Notes under the pieces: generated by a model
The model's input: the letters and a program-made list of their open reading frames with translations, nothing else
The model's database searches: none
Told to the model about the DNA's origin: nothing
Origin: a virus
Taxonomy: Duplodnaviria; Heunggongvirae; Uroviricota; Caudoviricetes
Length of the DNA stretch: 8,600 nt
Virus record (IMG/VR): IMGVR_UViG_2541047679_000008
Reading direction: 5' to 3' (one strand)
Shown: piece after piece, positions 98-7,868 of the stretch
Layout of the letters: every line of letters starts with the position of its first letter
How positions within the stretch are numbered: the stretch's first letter is position 1
Translations under genes and position numbers: made by a program

Positions 98-673
98 CTA
101 CGGCAGTGCTGGCCATTCAATATCCTGTGCAGTTGACGTATCAACACGGTTCAGCAACACCCGATACTTTTTCCAGGCTTCCAGCAATGAGGTTTCTTCC
201 TCCGTTGCGATTTCCAGATCTACAGCATCCTGAAGTGGCGCAATATGCTCACTGGCTACCTGCATCAGGCTGTTTTTTGTTTCTTCCGCCTCTCGGATCC
301 GGAACAGTTTTTCTGCTTCTGCATCTTTCACCCAGGCTGTGCCGTTCCACTTCTGAAACTCCCCTTCCGGCGATAACCAGGTAACATTTTCCGGTAACGG
401 ACCGAGTTCAGAAATAAATAACGCGTCCCCTGACGCTACGTCATAAACCGTTTTACCCCGATGGTCTTCAACGAGATGCCACGATGCCTTATCACTGTTG
501 AAAACAGCCACAAAGCCAGCAGGAATATCTGGTGGTGCAATATCGGTACTGTTTGCTGGCAGACCTGTATGAGGCGGAATATATGCGTCACCTTCACCAA
601 TAAATTCATTAGTTCCGGCCAGCAGATTATAAATTTTTATGGTCCGTGGTTGTTCACTCATTCTGAATGCCAT
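98..673 (-). CDS. tfa: Tail fibre assembly protein Tfa (lambda Tfa-like chaperone), 191 aa
   Basis: Translated ORF ([61 protein letters not shown]...) matches my memory of lambda Tfa almost residue for residue along its length. The ATG at 673-671 overlaps the stf stop codon (TAATG). A GAGG Shine-Dalgarno (plus-strand CCTC at 682-685) lies 8 nt upstream. Confidence 0.93.
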
Positions 674-3636
674 TATGCAAGCCTCACAATATAGTTAAAT
701 GCGATGTTTTTGACGGTGTTTTCCGCGTTACCAGCAGCGTTAACGGTGATGGTGTGTCCATGTGAACCAATCGCAACGGAGTGCGTATGAGCACCAATAC
801 CGACAGTATGCGCGTGTGCACCTGCAGATGCTGCTGTGCCGGACAGTGAATGGCTATGATTACCATCTGTACTGGTATTCGCTAACCACCCCGTAGACAT
901 ACCTACTGAGCCTTGTACACCCCAGGTATTTTGACCTGAGCTTGTATAACCATATTGATAAGTATCTTTAAAAACACTGGGGTTAAATCGACGGCCATCT
1001 CTATGGCTGTGATTACCAGCTGCATTCGTGCTGCCACTTAAACTATGGGTATGCGCACCAGTGTTATTCGTGGATTTAGTGCCGTAATCAAACGACGATG
1101 TGGTTTTCGTCCCCAAATCCGTACTGGATGCGCTGGCGCTGTGGGTATGCGATTTAATGCCGTCCTGTTCCTGAGACAATACGGCCCGACCACTGGCAGG
1201 TTTGCCCTTAATCGTCCAGCCACGCATATCAGGGATCACGCCTGACGGATAAGCGGCTGCAAGTTTCGGGTATGCAGATTTGTCAAAAGTCTGCCCCTGC
1301 ATCAGGGCATAGCCAGACGGAACGGTATCTGATGGCCACGGGATTGGTGCGCCAGGCGGATAAAACTGCTCTGATGGCGTATAGAGTGAATAAACTGTAC
1401 CGTCCGTTAACCCTTCCGGCTTATTAGCAGAATATGCTGGTGACGTATGAATCGTCACGCTGGCATTACTGGTATAATCCCATTGAATATTTACACCAGT
1501 CGCATAATTTCCGATTGCAACGTAAATATCGTAAGTATCACCAGATGTATTGACCCAGGCAAAATTTGTAAACCCTGTCGATGTGCGCTGCCATAAAGCA
1601 CCAGTAATCCCCTTCGGATTACCATTACCTGCACGTAAAACAAGTTCAGATATACCTGCCTGTTGAGGTGACCCCACGTTAAATCCAGCGCCACCAATCA
1701 ACGTAATTGAAACAACAGAACTCGCCTGTGGCATGGTTACCGTTGCTAATTTGAACCAACCAGCACCACCGCTGAATGACATTGTTGTTGAGTTAAGCGT
1801 ACCAATATCTTTCGGCGTCAGTGTTATATCCGCTGAAAGCGCCTTACCATTCACCTTACGGGCAGAAGGTACCCGACCATTCGCATTGTCATTAGCTGCT
1901 TTCACTGCTTTCGGTGTCGCAGCAAGCGTTTCAGATGTGCTGTTGGTTGCACTACTGAGCTGGACAATTCCTTTTTGTGCTGTCGTAGCGTCCTGTGCGG
2001 TGTATTTCCCGTTAGCCAGGTCATACGCGGCCTTAACGGCTTTTGGCGTTGCCGCCTGTGACTCGGAAGTGCTGTTAGTCGCACTGCTGAGCTGAACTAT
2101 CCCTTTCTGTGCTGTCGTTGCATCCTGTGCGGTGTATTTCCCGTTAGCCAGGTCATACGCGGCCTTAACGGCTTTTGGCGTTGCCGCCTGTGACTCGGAA
2201 GTGCTGTTGGTCGCACTGCTGAGCTGTACTATCCCCTTTTTCGTCGTGCTCGCATCCTCAAGCGCCACGGCGGATGCAATATCCTCTGCCCGTTTTGCCG
2301 CTGTCTCGGCGCGCGTTGCCGCGGATTCCGCCGTACTTTTGCTCTGTGCTGCCGCCGTCGCACTGCCAGCTGCCTCTGTCGCCTTCGTGGATGCTGTCGT
2401 GGCGCTGCCCTTCGCTGCGGACGCTTGTCTGGTCGCCTCATCTTTTGAAGCAGACGCAGATGATGCCGATGACGCCGCCGAACTGGCGGACGATGCGGCA
2501 GCCGTTTTTGAGGATTCTGCGCTGGTTTCCGACGCTTTCGCGTTCGTCTCGGATGTCTTCGCTGCGGAAGCAGACCTCGCTGCTGCGCTGGCCTGTACAG
2601 CGGCTTCGCCAGCCTTCGTTGTGGCTGTTGAAGCGGACGATGCAGCACTTTCTGCCGATTTTCCGGCGGCGGTGGCACTGGCTGAGGCCTGCCCGGCATT
2701 TGTTGACGCGGCGCTGGCAGATGAGGCAGCCGCTGTTTTTGAGTCTGCTGCTGCGGAGGCACTCTGTGCTGCTGCCGTCTCAGAAGACTTAGCGTTCGTC
2801 TCGGACGTTTTTGCCGCCTTCGCGGAATTTCCTGCCGCTGTTGCCGAGGAGGCTGCACTACTGGCGCTCGAGGCTGCGCTCGTTTCTGATGATTTTGCCG
2901 CCTCTTTTGAGGCCGCCGCATCCCGGGCTGAGGTGGCAGCTTCTGACGCCTTCGTGGTCGCGGCGGATGCAGAAGTGGCTGCTGATTGTTGTGACGCTGC
3001 CGCATTCGTTTCTGACGTTTTCGCCGCAGCGGCACTGGTAGCTGCCGCGCTTTTTGAGGACTCTGCAGCAGCAGCACTTTTCGATGCTTCACTGGCCTTT
3101 GTTGATGCCGTTCCTGCGCTGGAAGATGCTGACTGAGCCGACGACGCGGCCTGTCCGGCTGACGTGCTGGCTGCGCGTGCTGAGCCTGCAGCATCAGTCG
3201 CATGGGTTGCCGCCTCACGTGCTGATGTGCCGGCATCGCTGGCTGACTTCTTCGCGGCTGCCGTGTTCTGTGCCACCGCGGACGCGTTACGCGCCACCTC
3301 TTCCACCATCAGTTCAAAACGGCGCAGTGCCTCAGGACGGGCATCATCCTCCGTCATGGCACCGAGAAAATCATTCAGCGTACCGGGTCGGGAATCTTCA
3401 TACACGGTGATGGTCCCGGCATGTGACGGCGGGAATCCCTCCACCAACAGAATAACGCTGTACTGCCCGTACTCAACGTCCATGCTGTAACGCCCGGCTT
3501 CATCCGGATTTTCAGAAGCCACCGTGTTCACCAGTACCGTGGTGCTGTTACGCTTTGCCTTCAGTTGAATAGTGCAGTTCTGTATTGGTTTTCCCGCACC
3601 ATCTTTCAGCACACCTGAGATTTTTACTGCTGCCAT
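673..3636 (-). CDS. stf: Side tail fibre protein Stf, about 987 aa, intact and mosaic
   Basis: N-terminus [31 protein letters not shown]... and C-terminus ...[31 protein letters not shown] match lambda Stf as I recall it. The ORF track begins at a GTG at 3642; I prefer the ATG at 3636 because a GGAG (plus CTCC 3643-3646) then sits 6 nt upstream and the product begins like lambda Stf. Stop codon TAA at 675-673. Contains an Ala/Ser/Thr-rich shaft, a 3x 44-aa repeat, a central block with a [19 protein letters not shown] motif, and a C-terminal HxH-rich region. Confidence 0.9.
676..1155 (-). other. Stf C-terminal His-box region with repeated HxH motifs (SHTHS, GAHTHS, GNHSHR, GNHSHS, GAHAHT, GAHTHS, GSHGHT)
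   Basis: Seen directly in the translation of the last about 160 codons of stf. Equivalent HxH repeats in T4 gp37-type long tail fibre tips coordinate metal ions along the trimer axis. Confidence 0.7.
1360..1875 (-). other. Stf central block of about 172 aa ([45 protein letters not shown]...[12 protein letters not shown]) that I do not recall from lambda Stf; probable module swap
   Basis: Flanked on both sides by lambda-like sequence (44-aa repeat upstream, GAPIPWPSD...[24 protein letters not shown] downstream). The DNA here is visibly more AT-rich than the neighbouring Ala-rich shaft. The VNGKALSxDITLT motif is common in other coliphage tail fibres. Confidence 0.6.
1900..2240. repeat. 132-bp direct tandem repeat inside stf: two near-identical units at about 1971-2102 and 2103-2234, plus a diverged partial unit to about 1900
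   Basis: The string gtgcggtgtatttcccgttagccaggtcatacgcggccttaacggcttttggcgttgccgcctgtgactcggaagtgctgtt occurs at 1995 and again at 2127, a period of 132 bp. It encodes three consecutive copies of [44 protein letters not shown], the third diverged to ...[23 protein letters not shown]. Confidence 0.85.
2240..3310. repeat. Low-complexity, GC-rich Ala/Ser/Thr-rich coding region (Stf shaft) with dispersed imperfect repeats encoding KTSETNA-like motifs
   Basis: The translation is dominated by A/S/T/K/E (for example [38 protein letters not shown]). Similar DNA segments recur around 2541-2570, 2791-2820 and 3003-3030. The region spawns long spurious ORFs in other frames on both strands. Confidence 0.7.
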
Positions 3637-3642
3637 ATCCAC

Positions 3643-3646
3643 TCCA
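3643..3646 (-). promoter_or_regulatory. Shine-Dalgarno (GGAG) for stf
   Basis: Minus-strand GGAG lies 6 nt upstream of the ATG at 3636. Confidence 0.6.
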
Positions 3647-3674
3647 CAAAAAAGCCCGCCTGAACCGGCGGGCT
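3647..3674 (-). terminator. Rho-independent terminator downstream of lom
   Basis: Perfect 7-8 bp GC-rich stem (plus gcccgcc 3654-3660 and ggcgggc 3667-3673, loop tgaacc), followed on the minus-strand transcript by UUUUUU (plus A-run 3648-3653). It lies 27 nt past the lom stop and immediately before the stf ribosome-binding site. Confidence 0.65.
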
Positions 3675-3700
3675 GTCATAACACTGTGTTACCTGGCTAA

Positions 3701-4300
3701 TCAGAACTTATAACCGACACCCACGATGAAACCGTCAGTGCGCCAGTCGCCACTGCCGGAGCCTTCATAAGCAATATCAATGGCCACGGATTCGGTCGGG
3801 TTAAACTGCACGCCAGCTCCCCACGCCAGAGACGTGTTGCTGTGGCGACCGTCATCACTTCCGGTCAGCACATCGTGCTTTTTCCCCTTGTTGTCAGTTA
3901 CGCGAAGATAATCCCCGGAGAAAGTCGACACACGGCTGTAAGCCACACCTGCCATCGCATAAGCACTGAACCATTCATTCACGCGCACAGACGGCCCCGC
4001 CATTACGCTGAACCAGCGGTTACGAACGGAATCTTCATGCCAGCGGGTATCGCTGTAACGGGTCAGCTGGCGATTCTTGTCTCCTGCATAGCTGAATGAC
4101 GTCACCAGCCCCAGTGTGTCCGTAAACTCATAACGGTATTTCACGTTAATCCCGTTCAGATTTTCGCTGCCGGGAGCGTTCGTACGGGCATGAAGATACC
4201 CTGCGCTCAGTGTGGCCTGCTGCTCAGACGCCCATGCAGGCGCACCGGATACGGCCAGACAAATGGCTGCGGACAAAATTGCTGCACAAACTTTACGCAT
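3701..4300 (-). CDS. lom: Lom-family (Ail/Lom/PagC/OmpX) outer-membrane beta-barrel protein, 199 aa, with signal peptide
   Basis: The C-terminal half (...AWGAGVQFNPTESVAIDIAYEGSGSGDWRTDGFIVGVGYKF) matches lambda Lom as I recall it; the N-terminal half differs. N-terminus MRKVCAAILSAAICLAVSGAPAWA looks like a Sec signal peptide with an AxA cleavage site. It ends in the aromatic residue (F) typical of beta-barrel outer-membrane proteins. A GAGAGG Shine-Dalgarno (plus cctctc 4306-4311) precedes the ATG at 4300. Confidence 0.92.
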   Translation of the reverse strand: MRKVCAAILSAAICLAVSGAPAWASEQQATLSAGYLHARTNAPGSENLNGINVKYRYEFTDTLGLVTSFSYAGDKNRQLTRYSDTRWHEDSVRNRWFSVMAGPSVRVNEWFSAYAMAGVAYSRVSTFSGDYLRVTDNKGKKHDVLTGSDDGRHSNTSLAWGAGVQFNPTESVAIDIAYEGSGSGDWRTDGFIVGVGYKF

Positions 4301-4324
4301 AATTACCTCTCGCTTTTCTGCAAT

Positions 4325-4348
4325 AAAAAAGGCGTCATTCCTGACGCC
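4325..4348 (-). terminator. Rho-independent terminator downstream of J and upstream of lom
   Basis: Perfect 7-bp stem (plus ggcgtca 4331-4337 and tgacgcc 4342-4348, loop ttcc), followed on the minus-strand transcript by UUUUUU (plus A-run 4325-4330). A weaker T-rich stretch on the plus side suggests it may act in both directions. Confidence 0.55.
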
Positions 4349-4370
4349 CTTTATTGGGGTTATAAATATT

Positions 4371-7300
4371 TCAACGAATACTGATGCCGGAAGCGGCTTT
4401 TTTGGTCACAATCACCGTACAGTCGGTGATATTGCCTGCCCCCTGATTGCCTTTCTGGAAAATCTTAAACTCCAGAGTGACGCTTCCCCTGCCACTCGGC
4501 ATATCAATAACTGCACTGTAACTACCGGGAATGGCCCCTTTAGTTTCTCTGGATGCGATTAATACGCCGTTTTTGCGAACTTCAAAACCATAACCCGTGT
4601 ATCTTGTACCTCCCGGGTTATTACCACTTCCCGGATCGCTATACGCTATTCCGTTAAAGATAATGGGCGGAATAATGATTTGACGGTCAAAGTTATGATC
4701 ATCGCTGATGGTGACTGTAACCGTCCCGTTTGGTGTTTCCGTATTACCCCACGTACCAGCCTGTTTCGGGAATGATTTGGATACAGCTTTAACGAAGTCA
4801 CCTCTGACCTGAGTCGCCTCCAGCATGCCCTTAATCGTACAGTTTTCATTTACCGTGACATTGTTGAGCGTCCCGGAGTTCGCATTCACGTTACCGCTGA
4901 TATCCGCATTTTTCGCCGTCAGCCGCCCGTCCGGTGTCAGGGAAAATGCCGGCGGATTTCCACCGCTGGTAATGGTGGGAGCCGTCAGGCGTTTCAGGAA
5001 CACGTCATTCATGAATATCTGATCACCCTGACCAACAAACATCGGTTTTGTGTTGCCATTTGCAGGATTAATCATCGCAATCCTGTCTGCCGCCAGCAGC
5101 ACCTGACTCTGCATGCCGTCAGGGGTGTTCTCAATACCGGCACCGATACCCGCAATATAAAGGCGTCCGTCCTGCATCTGCTGCAGCTTCACAGCCCACA
5201 TGCTGTTCAGGTTATTATTTGTATCAACCTGAACCTTCTGTATCTGCTGAATTGCCGCACTCTGGTCTTCCAGTTTCTTATTGACGGTCTGTGTTATTTC
5301 ATTGCTGACATCCGTTATGGACGTCCTGATTTCAGTCAGGTCAGGCGCAAGCTGACCGTTATCAATCTGCGTCCACAGCTCCTGAGCCAGATGGGTTTTC
5401 CCTATCTCGCCTTTGAAAAAATCCAGATAGCCTGATGCATCATCACTCGGCTGGCCAACAGCCTCCACGAATGCAGATTTGCCAACGGTGTTCACACTGC
5501 GAACGTAAAAATAATAATCATGGCCCGGTTTGATATTGATACTGGCGGCTATCCAGTACAGTGCCGTACCAAGATAACGCGCGCTGGTTTCAACCTGCCT
5601 GATATCCGCAATCCGCTTTTCTGAGAACCAGAACTCAAACTGTACCGTCGGATCATAAACGGCAAGATGCGGCGTGGCGGTTATCTGAAAATAGCCCGGC
5701 GTCAGCTCAATCCGCGATGGCGCTGCCGGTGCGGCAATCCGGAACGATACCGACGCCGGATCGCCCTGCTGCCCCCACGCATTTACTGCCCGGACTGTCA
5801 GCCTGTAGTTCCCCAGAGCCAGTTGTGTGAAGCGGTAAGTGGTTTCCGTCGTCCGGGCCGTGCTGACCAGCCGCTCACTGCCGTCATCCGCTGTTACGGT
5901 CAGGCGAAGCATGAAACTCACGCCCTTCACCACCTTCGGCGTGTCCCAGCGGGCCAGTACCTGATACTCCCCGCTGTCTGCGGTGACTTCGGCAGTCAGG
6001 TGCTGCACTGCTGGCGGCGTGACACCATTCACCGTGCCGCTCTGGTCGCCGTCAAAGTGCGCCCCGTTATCCACGATAGCTTCTTTTTCCGGTACATGCT
6101 GCACGGCGGTGATAGCATACGTGCCGTCGTCGTTCTCACGGATACTCACACAGCGGAACAGGCGCTGGCGCAGCGTCGGCAGCTTCAGCCCCCATACGCT
6201 GTATCCGGCAACGCCGTCAGGAACACGGCTCACTTTTACCTTCACGCCGTCGGTGACGGACTGGACCTCCACGCTGACCGGATTGCCACTTCCGTCAACC
6301 AGGCTTATCAGCGTGGTACCGGAGGATGGCAGCGTGATTTCACGGTCGAGCGTCAGCGTCCGGGTCTGGCTGTTCACCGCCAGCACGCGCCCGCCGGTGC
6401 TGATCCCCGCATAGTCATCATCGCAGATTTCAATGACATCGCCCGGCACATGGCGAAGCCCTTCCGCACCCACGCTGAAGTCCACGGTCTGCGTTTCCAG
6501 TAGTTCCGTTTTAATCAGCCACAGCCCGGCGCGGTGCGCCTGCCCCCGGCTGGTACAGCCAAAGGCATCCATCTTCGTGACGTTACGACCGTAACGGAGA
6601 ATGGCCTGCGTATCTTCAACAAGCTCTGTCGCCGTCTCCCAGCCGTTATTCGGGTCAATCCAGTTCACCTCAACGGCATTATGGCGGTCCTTCAGGGCGC
6701 TGAAGCTGTAGCGGAACGGCGCGCCATCATCCGGCATCACCACATTACTGCGGTTATAGGTCCACACCTTATCCGACGGTCGGTCCTGCACGAACGTCAG
6801 CGTCTGCCCGTTCCATACCGGCATACAGCGCATCGCCGAGCAGAAATCACTGAGAACATCCCACGCCTTACGCTGTGTGGTCAGGTAGGCATTACAGGTG
6901 ATGCGCGGCTCCGTGCCACCAAAGCCATCCGGCACCGACTGGTCGCAATTCTGGCCGATGACATACAGCGCCCATTTGTCCACATCCGCCGCACCGAGAC
7001 GCTTCCCCATGCCGTAGCGCGGATGGGTCAGCATATCCCACAGACACCAGGCCATGTTGTTGCTGTATGCCGGTTTAAACGTCCCGTCCCAGATACCGCT
7101 GTATTGCCGCGTCTGCGGGTTATAGTTCGATGGCACCTGCAGAATGCGCCCGCGAAGATGATAATTACGGCTCACCTGCTGGCTGCCGAACTGTTCCGAG
7201 TCCACCTGCACGCCGACCAGTGCCGTGTTCGGGTAGCACTGTTTCACATCGATGATTTCGGTGTATGACGACCAGAGCGTTTTGTTCTGCAGCTGGTCTG

Positions 7301-7868
7301 TGGTGCTGTCCGGCGTCATTCTGCGCATCCGGATATTAAACGGGCGCGGCGGCAGGTTATCCACCACCACCGAGGCCAGATACTGCGAGGTGGTTTTGCC
7401 CTTAATGGTGATGTCTTTTTCCGTCACCCAGCCACCATTACGCTGTATCTGAACCAGCAGGCGAACTTCCGACGGATTCCGGTCCCCCTTTGAGGTGGTT
7501 TCCACCAGTGCCTGCACACCGAAGGTAAAGCGCAGTCGGTCGATGTTTGCCGACGTGATGGCGCGGGTGATCGGCGTGTCGTATTTCACTTCCGTACCCA
7601 GCACCGTCTCGGAACCGGAGGATTCAAATCCCTCCGGCGGAGTCTGCTCCTGCTCACCAGCCCGGAACACTACCGTGACACCGGCGATGTTGCTATTCCC
7701 ATCACTGTCCAGCACCGGCGTACTGTTCAGCAGCACGCTTTTTAATCCATCCACCGGACCTTCAATCGGCCCTTCGCTGATGGCATCGATCACACTCAGT
7801 AACTGCGTGGATTTCAGGTTGTCCTTCGCTTCGCGCGGGGTATGCCCCTTACTGCTGCCTTTACCCAT
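4371..7868 (-). CDS. J: Tail tip / central tail fibre host specificity protein J, 1165 aa
   Basis: N-terminus [54 protein letters not shown]... matches lambda J as I recall it. Length is close to lambda J (about 1130 aa). Fibronectin-III-like segments lie at about 5480-6030 ([31 protein letters not shown]...[14 protein letters not shown]). A GGAG Shine-Dalgarno (plus ctcc 7877-7880) sits 8 nt upstream of the ATG at 7868. Confidence 0.95.

Follow-up and report, generated by a model that had tools for sequence, protein, structure and literature searches.

The terminator-flanked lom gene of a lambda-like Escherichia coli prophage: a predicted resident upstream terminator and an apparently promoterless 673-nt cassette

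Described lom loci and the position of the window

In phage lambda, Q-modified RNA polymerase reads through downstream terminators. The lambda genes J, lom and stf (orf-401) stand in this order (NC_001416, 18,903-19,650), as they do in the DNA analysed here, and plaque formation does not require lom, stf or tfa (PMC10695390). Transcription of lambda lom in lysogens has been reported (PMC1151598, PMC7067206, PMC3594210), the expression data being those of Reeve & Shaw (1979) and Barondess & Beckwith (1990) as cited in PMC1151598 and PMC7067206, but it was undetected in one array study (PMC2147009). Strong expression of Lom in the lytic cycle is attributed to Liu (2013) in PMC9836094. No transcription start of lom was found to be mapped in the literature searched. 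Terminators around lom are not annotated in the lambda GenBank records; in those of mEp460 (JQ182728) and Ayreon (MF807953), lom is flanked by annotated rho-independent terminators, whose positions are exactly those of the hairpins described below. Because of these annotations, and because lambda has homologous hairpins, a terminator-flanked lom is nothing unusual among lambda-like phages and, having been annotated before, is not a new arrangement. The modest additions made here are the exact boundaries of the lom insertion/deletion (indel) and the promoterless nature of the lom cassette.

Gene 15 of HK97, a moron in the sense of Juhala et al. (2000; reviewed in PMC3594210), shares with lom the character of a dispensable extra gene that only some collinear relatives have, with its own terminator within the late operon. 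Ail/Lom-family genes followed by an intrinsic terminator are also found in the short-tailed Stx phages 933W and phi24B, with different neighbour genes and a Lom that is only about 40% identical. In this podovirus context, the 933W lom is preceded by a 90-nt AT-rich region with better promoter candidates than the window's (scores 9.9 and 8.6) and by no upstream terminator, and the phi24B lom, of the same 933W-type context, was found to be constitutive in lysogens and uncoupled from induction (PMC3342100, PMC4651098). The small RNA 24B_1 located downstream of phi24B lom (PMC4426718) was considered for the present locus and set aside, since it belongs to the 933W-type context and is stated in that paper to be absent from the lambda-type region. 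Gifsy-2 (NC_010393) likewise has cargo at its J-stf junction, where a hairpin follows J and a G+C-rich terminator immediately precedes the stf ribosome-binding site, although its cargo is an unrelated 80-aa ORF and its hairpin after J has an interrupted T-tract.

The window, that is, the whole 8.6-kb stretch of DNA that was analysed, carries all its real genes on the minus strand in the order I-J-lom-stf-tfa. The features are as follows.

8600-7929, minus strand: tail assembly gene I (ORF list; Pfam).
4371..7868, minus strand: host-specificity gene J, tail tip, 1165 aa (ORF list; Pfam J domains).
4356..4366, minus strand: conserved TTTATAACCCC motif between the J stop and hairpin 1, present in relatives with and without lom and not in lambda.
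4322..4348, minus strand: hairpin 1, the J-side candidate terminator, GGCGTCA-GGAA-TGACGCC then TTTTTTATT (sequence, fold energy, covariation, lom-less relatives, GenBank annotation).
4301..4321, minus strand: lom leader GCAGAAAAGCGAGAGGTAATT, with Shine-Dalgarno GAGAGG at 4311-4306 (sequence; 80 related loci; PWM scan).
3701..4300, minus strand: lom, 199-aa Ail/Lom outer-membrane beta-barrel precursor, cdtI/mEp460-type allele (Pfam, PDB relatives, BLASTP).
3679..3691, strand not assigned: perfect palindrome of 13 bp, TAACAC-N-GTGTTA, within the 3'UTR of lom and conserved in lambda.
3648..3674, minus strand: hairpin 2, the stf-side candidate terminator, AGCCCGCC-GGTTCA-GGCGGGCT then a T-run (T6) (sequence, terminator scan, fold energy, conservation).
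3649..4321, minus strand: 673-nt lom indel unit (pairwise alignment to Tritos, 4C10 and ev017; junction sequences).
3634..3647, minus strand: stf ribosome-binding site GGAG (3645-3642) and true ATG (3636-3634) (sequence; alignment to lambda and mEp460 stf starts).
673..3636, minus strand: stf, side tail fibre (Pfam phage_tail_N, fibre repeats and collar; PDB match to the T4 gp37 tip).
673-98, minus strand: tfa, tail fibre assembly (ORF list; Pfam).

Pfam agreed with the identity of each of the five genes, and the identity of the DNA was 98.8% to prophages of several E. coli strains, IAI1 among them, and about 95% to lambdoid phages such as IdasGreatGrand, cdtI and mEp460. On these two grounds, the window is assigned to the distal late-operon end of a lambda-like E. 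coli prophage. Over the J end, lom and the stf start, mEp460 and Ayreon were about 94.5% identical to the window and differed by point changes only, apart from one extra Ala codon at the start of the window stf. In the ORF list the stf start is placed at an in-frame GTG (3642), upstream of the true ATG.

The lom product matched PF06316 (Ail_Lom) over residues 1-199 of 199 with E = 1e-119 and 397.7 bits against a cut-off of 23, and its PDB relatives were Lom 9wso (4e-51) and OmpX and Ail (both about 1e-19), which are solved 8-stranded beta-barrels. The C-terminus, GVGYKF, ends on an aromatic residue, and the N-terminus, MRKVCAAILSAAICLAVSGAPAWA, is a putative signal peptide as judged by eye. 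The family assignment made for this gene in an earlier note, drawn from the sequence alone, is thus borne out, whereas its identity as lom needs the qualification that it is not the lambda allele, the two proteins being only 44% identical (BLASTP).

The two hairpins flanking lom

On the minus strand, the J stop (4373-4371) is followed by AATATTTATAACCCCAATAAAG, the stem-loop of hairpin 1 (4348-4331), TTTTTTATT, the leader GCAGAAAAGCGAGAGGTAATT and the lom ATG at 4300. Positions 4348-4342 of hairpin 1 pair with 4337-4331 in a 7-bp stem with five G-C pairs, closed by the 4-nt loop GGAA and followed by TTTTTTATT at 4330-4322. Beyond the lom stop (3703-3701) come TTAGCCAGGTAACACAGTGTTATGAC, the stem-loop of hairpin 2 (3674-3653), its T-run to 3648, GTGGAGTGGAT and the stf ATG at 3636. 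In hairpin 2, positions 3674-3667 pair with 3660-3653 in an 8-bp stem with seven G-C pairs and the 6-nt loop GGTTCA; TTTTTTG stands directly after the stem, with the T-run at 3653-3648, and the stf ribosome-binding site begins directly 3' of this run. Both elements have the geometry of intrinsic terminators, with free energies of -11.4 kcal/mol for hairpin 1 and -17.6 kcal/mol for hairpin 2, and the 61-nt contexts of both folded better than shuffled sequences, with z = -3.3 (hairpin 1) and z = -1.9 (hairpin 2). The hairpin and U-tract that the earlier note had placed on each side of lom in the minus-strand orientation were recovered exactly, in both coordinates and orientation, by the sequence and by a stringent scan.

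The stringent scan, which required a perfect 7-bp stem with at least five G-C pairs and at least five T in the next six bases, returned only hairpin 1 and hairpin 2 from both strands of the 8.6 kb, with a mean of 0.01 sites expected per window in first-order Markov simulations. These are therefore not chance hairpins. A loose terminator scan showed no overall enrichment in the window (11 sites vs 7.8 ± 2.9 expected); its strongest minus-strand site was hairpin 2, and hairpin 1 was reported only in the plus-strand reading. An Rfam scan of 3400-4700 gave only sub-threshold chance matches.

The stem of hairpin 1 was found to covary. Double changes occur in 3 of its 7 pairs, 97.3% of cells are paired across 16 distinct variants, and the covariation score was reached by none of 500 shuffles. 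Among 80 IMG/VR loci, the stem variants were GGCGTCA/TGACGCC, GGCGCCA/TGGCGCC and GGCACCA/TGGTGCC; in a phage carrying the other lom allele the stem is GGCACCT/AGGTGCC, and in lambda CGTCCG/CGGGCG, and the compensatory cores comprise GCGTC/GACGC, GCGCC/GGCGC, GCACC/GGTGC and GCACCT/AGGTGC. Mismatched variants were singletons among about 400 copies, and the minus-strand T-tract was invariant across relatives. For hairpin 2, the stem was invariant and the loop variable in relatives, a pattern of conservation only, with no covariation. Selection on both stems together with invariant T-tracts points to terminators rather than generic hairpins, and both hairpins, which are conserved, canonical in form and oriented with the late operon, are predicted to be intrinsic terminators; expression of stf would then need read-through of the two.

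Lambda has homologous hairpins at both positions. Its J-lom hairpin, CGTCCG-GGAA-CGGGCG TTTTATT, is shorter and weaker than that of the window (-9.0 vs -11.4 kcal/mol), and the TTATAACCC motif is missing there. The lambda counterpart of hairpin 2 is near-identical, with one G-U pair in its stem, and the two phages hardly differ in the lom 3'UTR, the terminator and the start of stf. Lom itself, for all its 44% overall identity, is nearly identical to the lambda protein over the last 27 residues, as is the 3' flank, which argues that the lambda-type and window-type genes are two old alleles at one site. The parallel with lambda drawn in the earlier note thus stands for the arrangement of the hairpins, and for expression in lysogens it stands with the reservation that one array study did not detect it.

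That hairpin 1 is bidirectional and serves mainly to stop plus-strand antisense transcription into J is very improbable: the loose scan did rate its plus-strand reading (GGCGTCATTCCTGACGCC then CTTTATTG) as terminator-like and an A-rich 5' flank lengthens its stem in the window, but the T-rich tail on the plus strand lacks conservation (CGTATTGGG and CGTATCTGG being common variants), the minus-strand T-tract is invariant, and no evident plus-strand promoter or gene was found within lom by the ORF list and PWM.

The lom cassette and its lom-less relatives

When the lom-stf junction was searched, some phages were found to match only from the T-run of hairpin 2 onward. In Tritos (OV696610), Lambda_4C10 (LR595861) and ev017 (NC_049948), J is followed directly by stf, and lom is absent. 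The 58-nt gap between J and stf in these phages reads J-stop, TTATAACCC..., GGGCGCCAGAAATGGCGCC, TTTTTTATT, TGTGGAGTGAATATG (stf); that is, hairpin 1 and its T-tract are joined straight to the stf ribosome-binding site. The J end, hairpin 1 with its T-tract and the stf ribosome-binding site are the same as in the window, but the 673-nt cassette is missing, so that a single terminator stands between J and stf. Compared with the window, Tritos is 94% identical in the J receptor-binding domain and 92% at the stf start, and lacks exactly 673 nt, placed by pairwise alignment at about 4321-3649 in window coordinates. This unit consists of the 21-nt leader, lom, its 3'UTR, the stem-loop of hairpin 2 and the first five T of the T-run, the last T (3648) being kept in the lom-less relatives. 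Both joints lie inside T runs, which leaves about 2 nt of ambiguity at the ends, and beyond these T runs no direct or inverted repeats were found at the lom flanks as transposition scars. The palindrome of the lom 3'UTR is present as a single copy and is not significant by itself. Two apparent copies of the lom left joint occur in each of contigs L298 and L329; those of L298, which has an N at the join, represent an assembly scaffold artefact.

The lom-less joint was found in 86 IMG/VR contigs and the joint with lom in at least 120, with at least 600 matches to lom. Six identical 56-nt variants of the J end plus hairpin 1 were common to contexts with and without lom. The retention of hairpin 1 in phages that lack lom argues that this hairpin belongs to the J-stf junction: it is, on this comparison, the resident J-stf terminator, independent of lom, and does not belong to a lom moron. 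The lom-less joint goes with a single stf 5' haplotype (MAVQIS), that of Tritos, Lambda_4C10 and ev017, and no haplotype was found in both states; this tie to one haplotype suggests a single origin, whether by insertion of lom or by its loss, and is consistent with a single deletion event.

Other rearrangements were observed at the same place. In phage D2, lom is deleted at its 5' side and fused to J, Lambda_4B5 has an IS4 inserted within hairpin 1, and in contig L162 an unrelated ORF is joined at the lom 3'UTR palindrome. With two lom alleles, the Gifsy-2 ORF and an IS4 in one phage, the J-stf junction appears to be a place where cargo cassettes have docked repeatedly.

Measured against a moron in the sense of Juhala et al. 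(2000), lom is an extra gene missing from collinear relatives, and its own terminator, hairpin 2, lies directly downstream with the stem-loop inside the indel unit. No promoter of its own was found immediately upstream among sigma-70 matches in the gap and the J 3' end, and its base composition (GC 0.52-0.565) is like that of its flanks, the outlier of the window being the C-terminal region of J (0.43-0.47). With no promoter of its own found and a GC content that is not distinct, lom lacks two classical moron hallmarks. Compared with HK97-type morons as the review (PMC3594210) presents them, the window lom thus differs in three respects: no promoter was found, the GC content is not distinct and a terminator, instead of a promoter, lies upstream. 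The description of lom in the earlier note as a terminator-bracketed moron consequently holds for the extra gene and its downstream terminator; it does not hold for the upstream hairpin, which is assigned to the J-stf junction.

Source of lom transcription

From the T6 run of hairpin 1 to the lom ATG there are exactly 24 nt (4324-4301), in line with the approximate figure given earlier, and the leader from the T-tract to the ATG was invariant in the 80 IMG/VR loci with the window's lom allele. With a gap of 24 nt and a leader of 21 nt, both too short for a promoter downstream of hairpin 1, the lom cassette has no room for one. The 24-nt gap contained no sigma-70 candidate by PWM, an approximate matrix for sigma-70 only, and a separate promoter scan found no minus-strand sigma-70 site near lom, in agreement with the earlier reading that this gap holds no convincing one. 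A sigma-70 promoter in the gap or over hairpin 1 was rejected, the possible -10 hexamers TTTATT and TATTGC being without key -10 bases and the lambda TATTAT not being conserved. Since the matrix is approximate and covers sigma-70 only, other-sigma or activator-dependent promoters would escape it.

We consider it probable, at roughly 70%, that the locus comprises a resident hairpin 1 and a promoterless 673-nt lom cassette that is read by Q-antiterminated late transcription, with expression in the lysogen arising from leakage or from an unmapped promoter. Hairpin 1 would be an intrinsic terminator placed where the essential tail genes end. In lytic growth, both terminators would be ignored by RNA polymerase modified by Q, and the late transcript would yield J, lom, stf and tfa. 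In the absence of Q, most transcription arriving from upstream would halt at hairpin 1, and hairpin 2 would prevent any transcription that reaches lom from extending into the tail-fibre genes; the source of Lom in a lysogen would then be a low-level leak past hairpin 1 from weak sites in J, or the unmapped promoter. We infer termination itself, the read-through by Q and the source of prophage expression from the sequence. What lom looks like, in short, is a promoterless cargo cassette for Q-antiterminated late transcription. The reports of lambda lom expression in lysogens fit a dedicated promoter better than leakage, and this counts against the explanation preferred here.

Three other explanations were ranked lower, the antisense one dismissed above being among them. 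The best placed of the three, itself unlikely, is that of a classical moron, in which a sigma-70 promoter in the J 3' end would give constitutive expression of lom in the prophage, with inefficient or regulated passage of hairpin 1, and hairpin 2 would be the moron's terminator. Besides the reported expression of lambda lom in lysogens (PMC1151598, PMC7067206), it draws on the base composition of J, which at its 3' end is richer in AT than any other part of the window: its last ~430 nt, encoding the receptor-binding domain, form a low-GC, mosaic section (GC 0.43-0.47 at 4300-4800). It also draws on a -35-like TTGATA some 215 nt before the lom ATG, which recurs in many J types (TTGACA in lambda) and is accompanied in one allele by a good -10 partner, TGTAAT (11.5). 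In the window, however, the -10 partner is AAGCGT, which scores a poor 6.0. TTGATA was rejected as a promoter element, because it represents codons of the conserved J peptide VIDMP and is broken by a synonymous change in cluster L006. The best PWM candidates in the J 3' end scored 7.55 and 7.39, at 534 and 360 nt upstream of lom, and the best of them is equalled or exceeded by 22 sites in the window. Moreover, a transcript starting within J would have to cross the conserved, covarying hairpin 1; the same lom allele is joined to at least 13 different J 3' clusters, the J ends being highly mosaic against a constant lom; and the same J ends occur in phages that have no lom. No support was found for a conserved sigma-70 promoter in the J 3' end, the candidates there being weak, and the suggestion in the earlier note that the promoter may lie inside the 3' end of J thus fared poorly.

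Somewhat less likely again is that the hairpins act mainly as RNA stability or processing elements in the Q-antiterminated late RNA, where they would be exonuclease barriers setting the levels of J, lom and stf. Q-modified polymerase is expected to ignore the hairpins, yet both are under selection; hairpin 1 is kept in lom-less phages, though lytic transcription must pass it anyway; and Lom is strong in the lytic cycle according to the citation of Liu (2013) in PMC9836094. Nevertheless, an invariant U-tract after each stem is a terminator feature that would be unnecessary for a stability hairpin, and such a role is in any case compatible with a promoterless cassette read by late transcription.

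The position of a promoterless siphovirus lom cassette directly behind a covarying terminator also allows a bolder and quite doubtful conjecture, namely that Lom is essentially a Q-dependent late protein with a lytic role (for example, an outer-membrane function at lysis or in blocking the re-adsorption of progeny) and that its expression in lysogens is leakage set by the upstream allele of the J receptor domain. If this were true, swaps of the receptor-binding domain would incidentally retune the virulence-associated lom.

The practical value of these results lies in annotation and interpretation, and nothing in them would surprise a lambda specialist. Clean pairs with and without lom, such as the window prophage and Tritos, offer a straightforward way of testing where lom expression in lysogens originates, and the lom of a lambda-like siphovirus should not be assumed to be a self-contained moron of promoter, gene and terminator.

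The J 3' end and the gap before hairpin 1

Four features of the window are considered here:

4371-4800, the receptor-binding end of J, the lowest in G+C of the whole window (0.43-0.47)
4356-4366, TTTATAACCC(C), a motif in the gap that separates the J stop codon from hairpin 1, the intrinsic terminator lying between J and lom
3679-3691, TAACAC-N-GTGTTA, a perfect palindrome of 13 bp within the lom 3'UTR, immediately preceding hairpin 2, the terminator at the 3' end of the lom cassette
667-695 (+), ATGCCA-17-TATAGT, a sigma-70-like match

The receptor-binding end of J was found to be highly mosaic among the relatives compared, with at least 13 distinct J 3' sequence clusters joined to one and the same lom allele. 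The motif in the gap was nevertheless kept in nearly all relatives, both those with and those without the lom unit, although the J 3' ends of these relatives differ strongly. Lambda, in contrast, lacks the motif of the window.

The lom 3'UTR and the stf gene

The palindrome preceding hairpin 2 is identical in lambda. In one of the compared contigs (L162), the 5' edge of the palindrome is the exact point at which an unrelated upstream ORF meets stf. At the start of stf (3631-3642), the GTG at 3642 given in the ORF listing was rejected; the true start was placed at the ATG at 3636, on the basis of the alignment with lambda and mEp460 and of a GGAG located 5 nt upstream. The stf of the window carries one additional Ala codon, its product beginning MAAVKIS, whereas those of the relatives begin MAVKIS or MAVQIS. 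This extra-Ala haplotype is the minority form, being present in 24 of the 231 lom-containing loci. The sigma-70-like match, the highest-scoring of the whole window (11.2 with the approximate promoter matrix), lies at the stf/tfa junction and is antisense to the late genes.

Other arrangements between J and stf

Further arrangements were observed at this junction. In the lom-less phage Lambda_4B5 (LR595863; 1-1535), an IS4 element lies inside hairpin 1 and splits its stem. Phage D2 (OM475427; 1118-1327) holds a lom remnant of the lambda allele, comprising its 3'-terminal ~40 codons, fused in-frame behind J sequence and with hairpin 2 still there; the fusion is annotated as 'host specificity protein J', and an N occurs nearby in the record. 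In Salmonella Gifsy-2 (NC_010393; 1229-1525), the J-stf gap is occupied by an unrelated 80-aa ORF (STM1049.2n), with a hairpin after J and a G+C-rich terminator directly 5' of the stf ribosome-binding site. An apparent tandem of lom, J 3' end and lom in one IMG/VR contig (L298; 4953) was discarded, since an N is found at the join, and is most likely a scaffolding artefact joining two prophages.

Structural matches of Stf and Lom

The N-terminal 95 residues of Stf matched lambda tail structures (PDB 9e7m), and residues 745-987, the C-terminal tip (window 673-1400), matched the tip of gp37, the long tail fibre protein of phage T4 (PDB 2xgf, E = 3e-85). PDB entry 9wso, to which neither the J nor the Stf query gave a match, contains two Lom chains, chain C being the lambda-type 'Outer membrane protein lom' of 206 aa.
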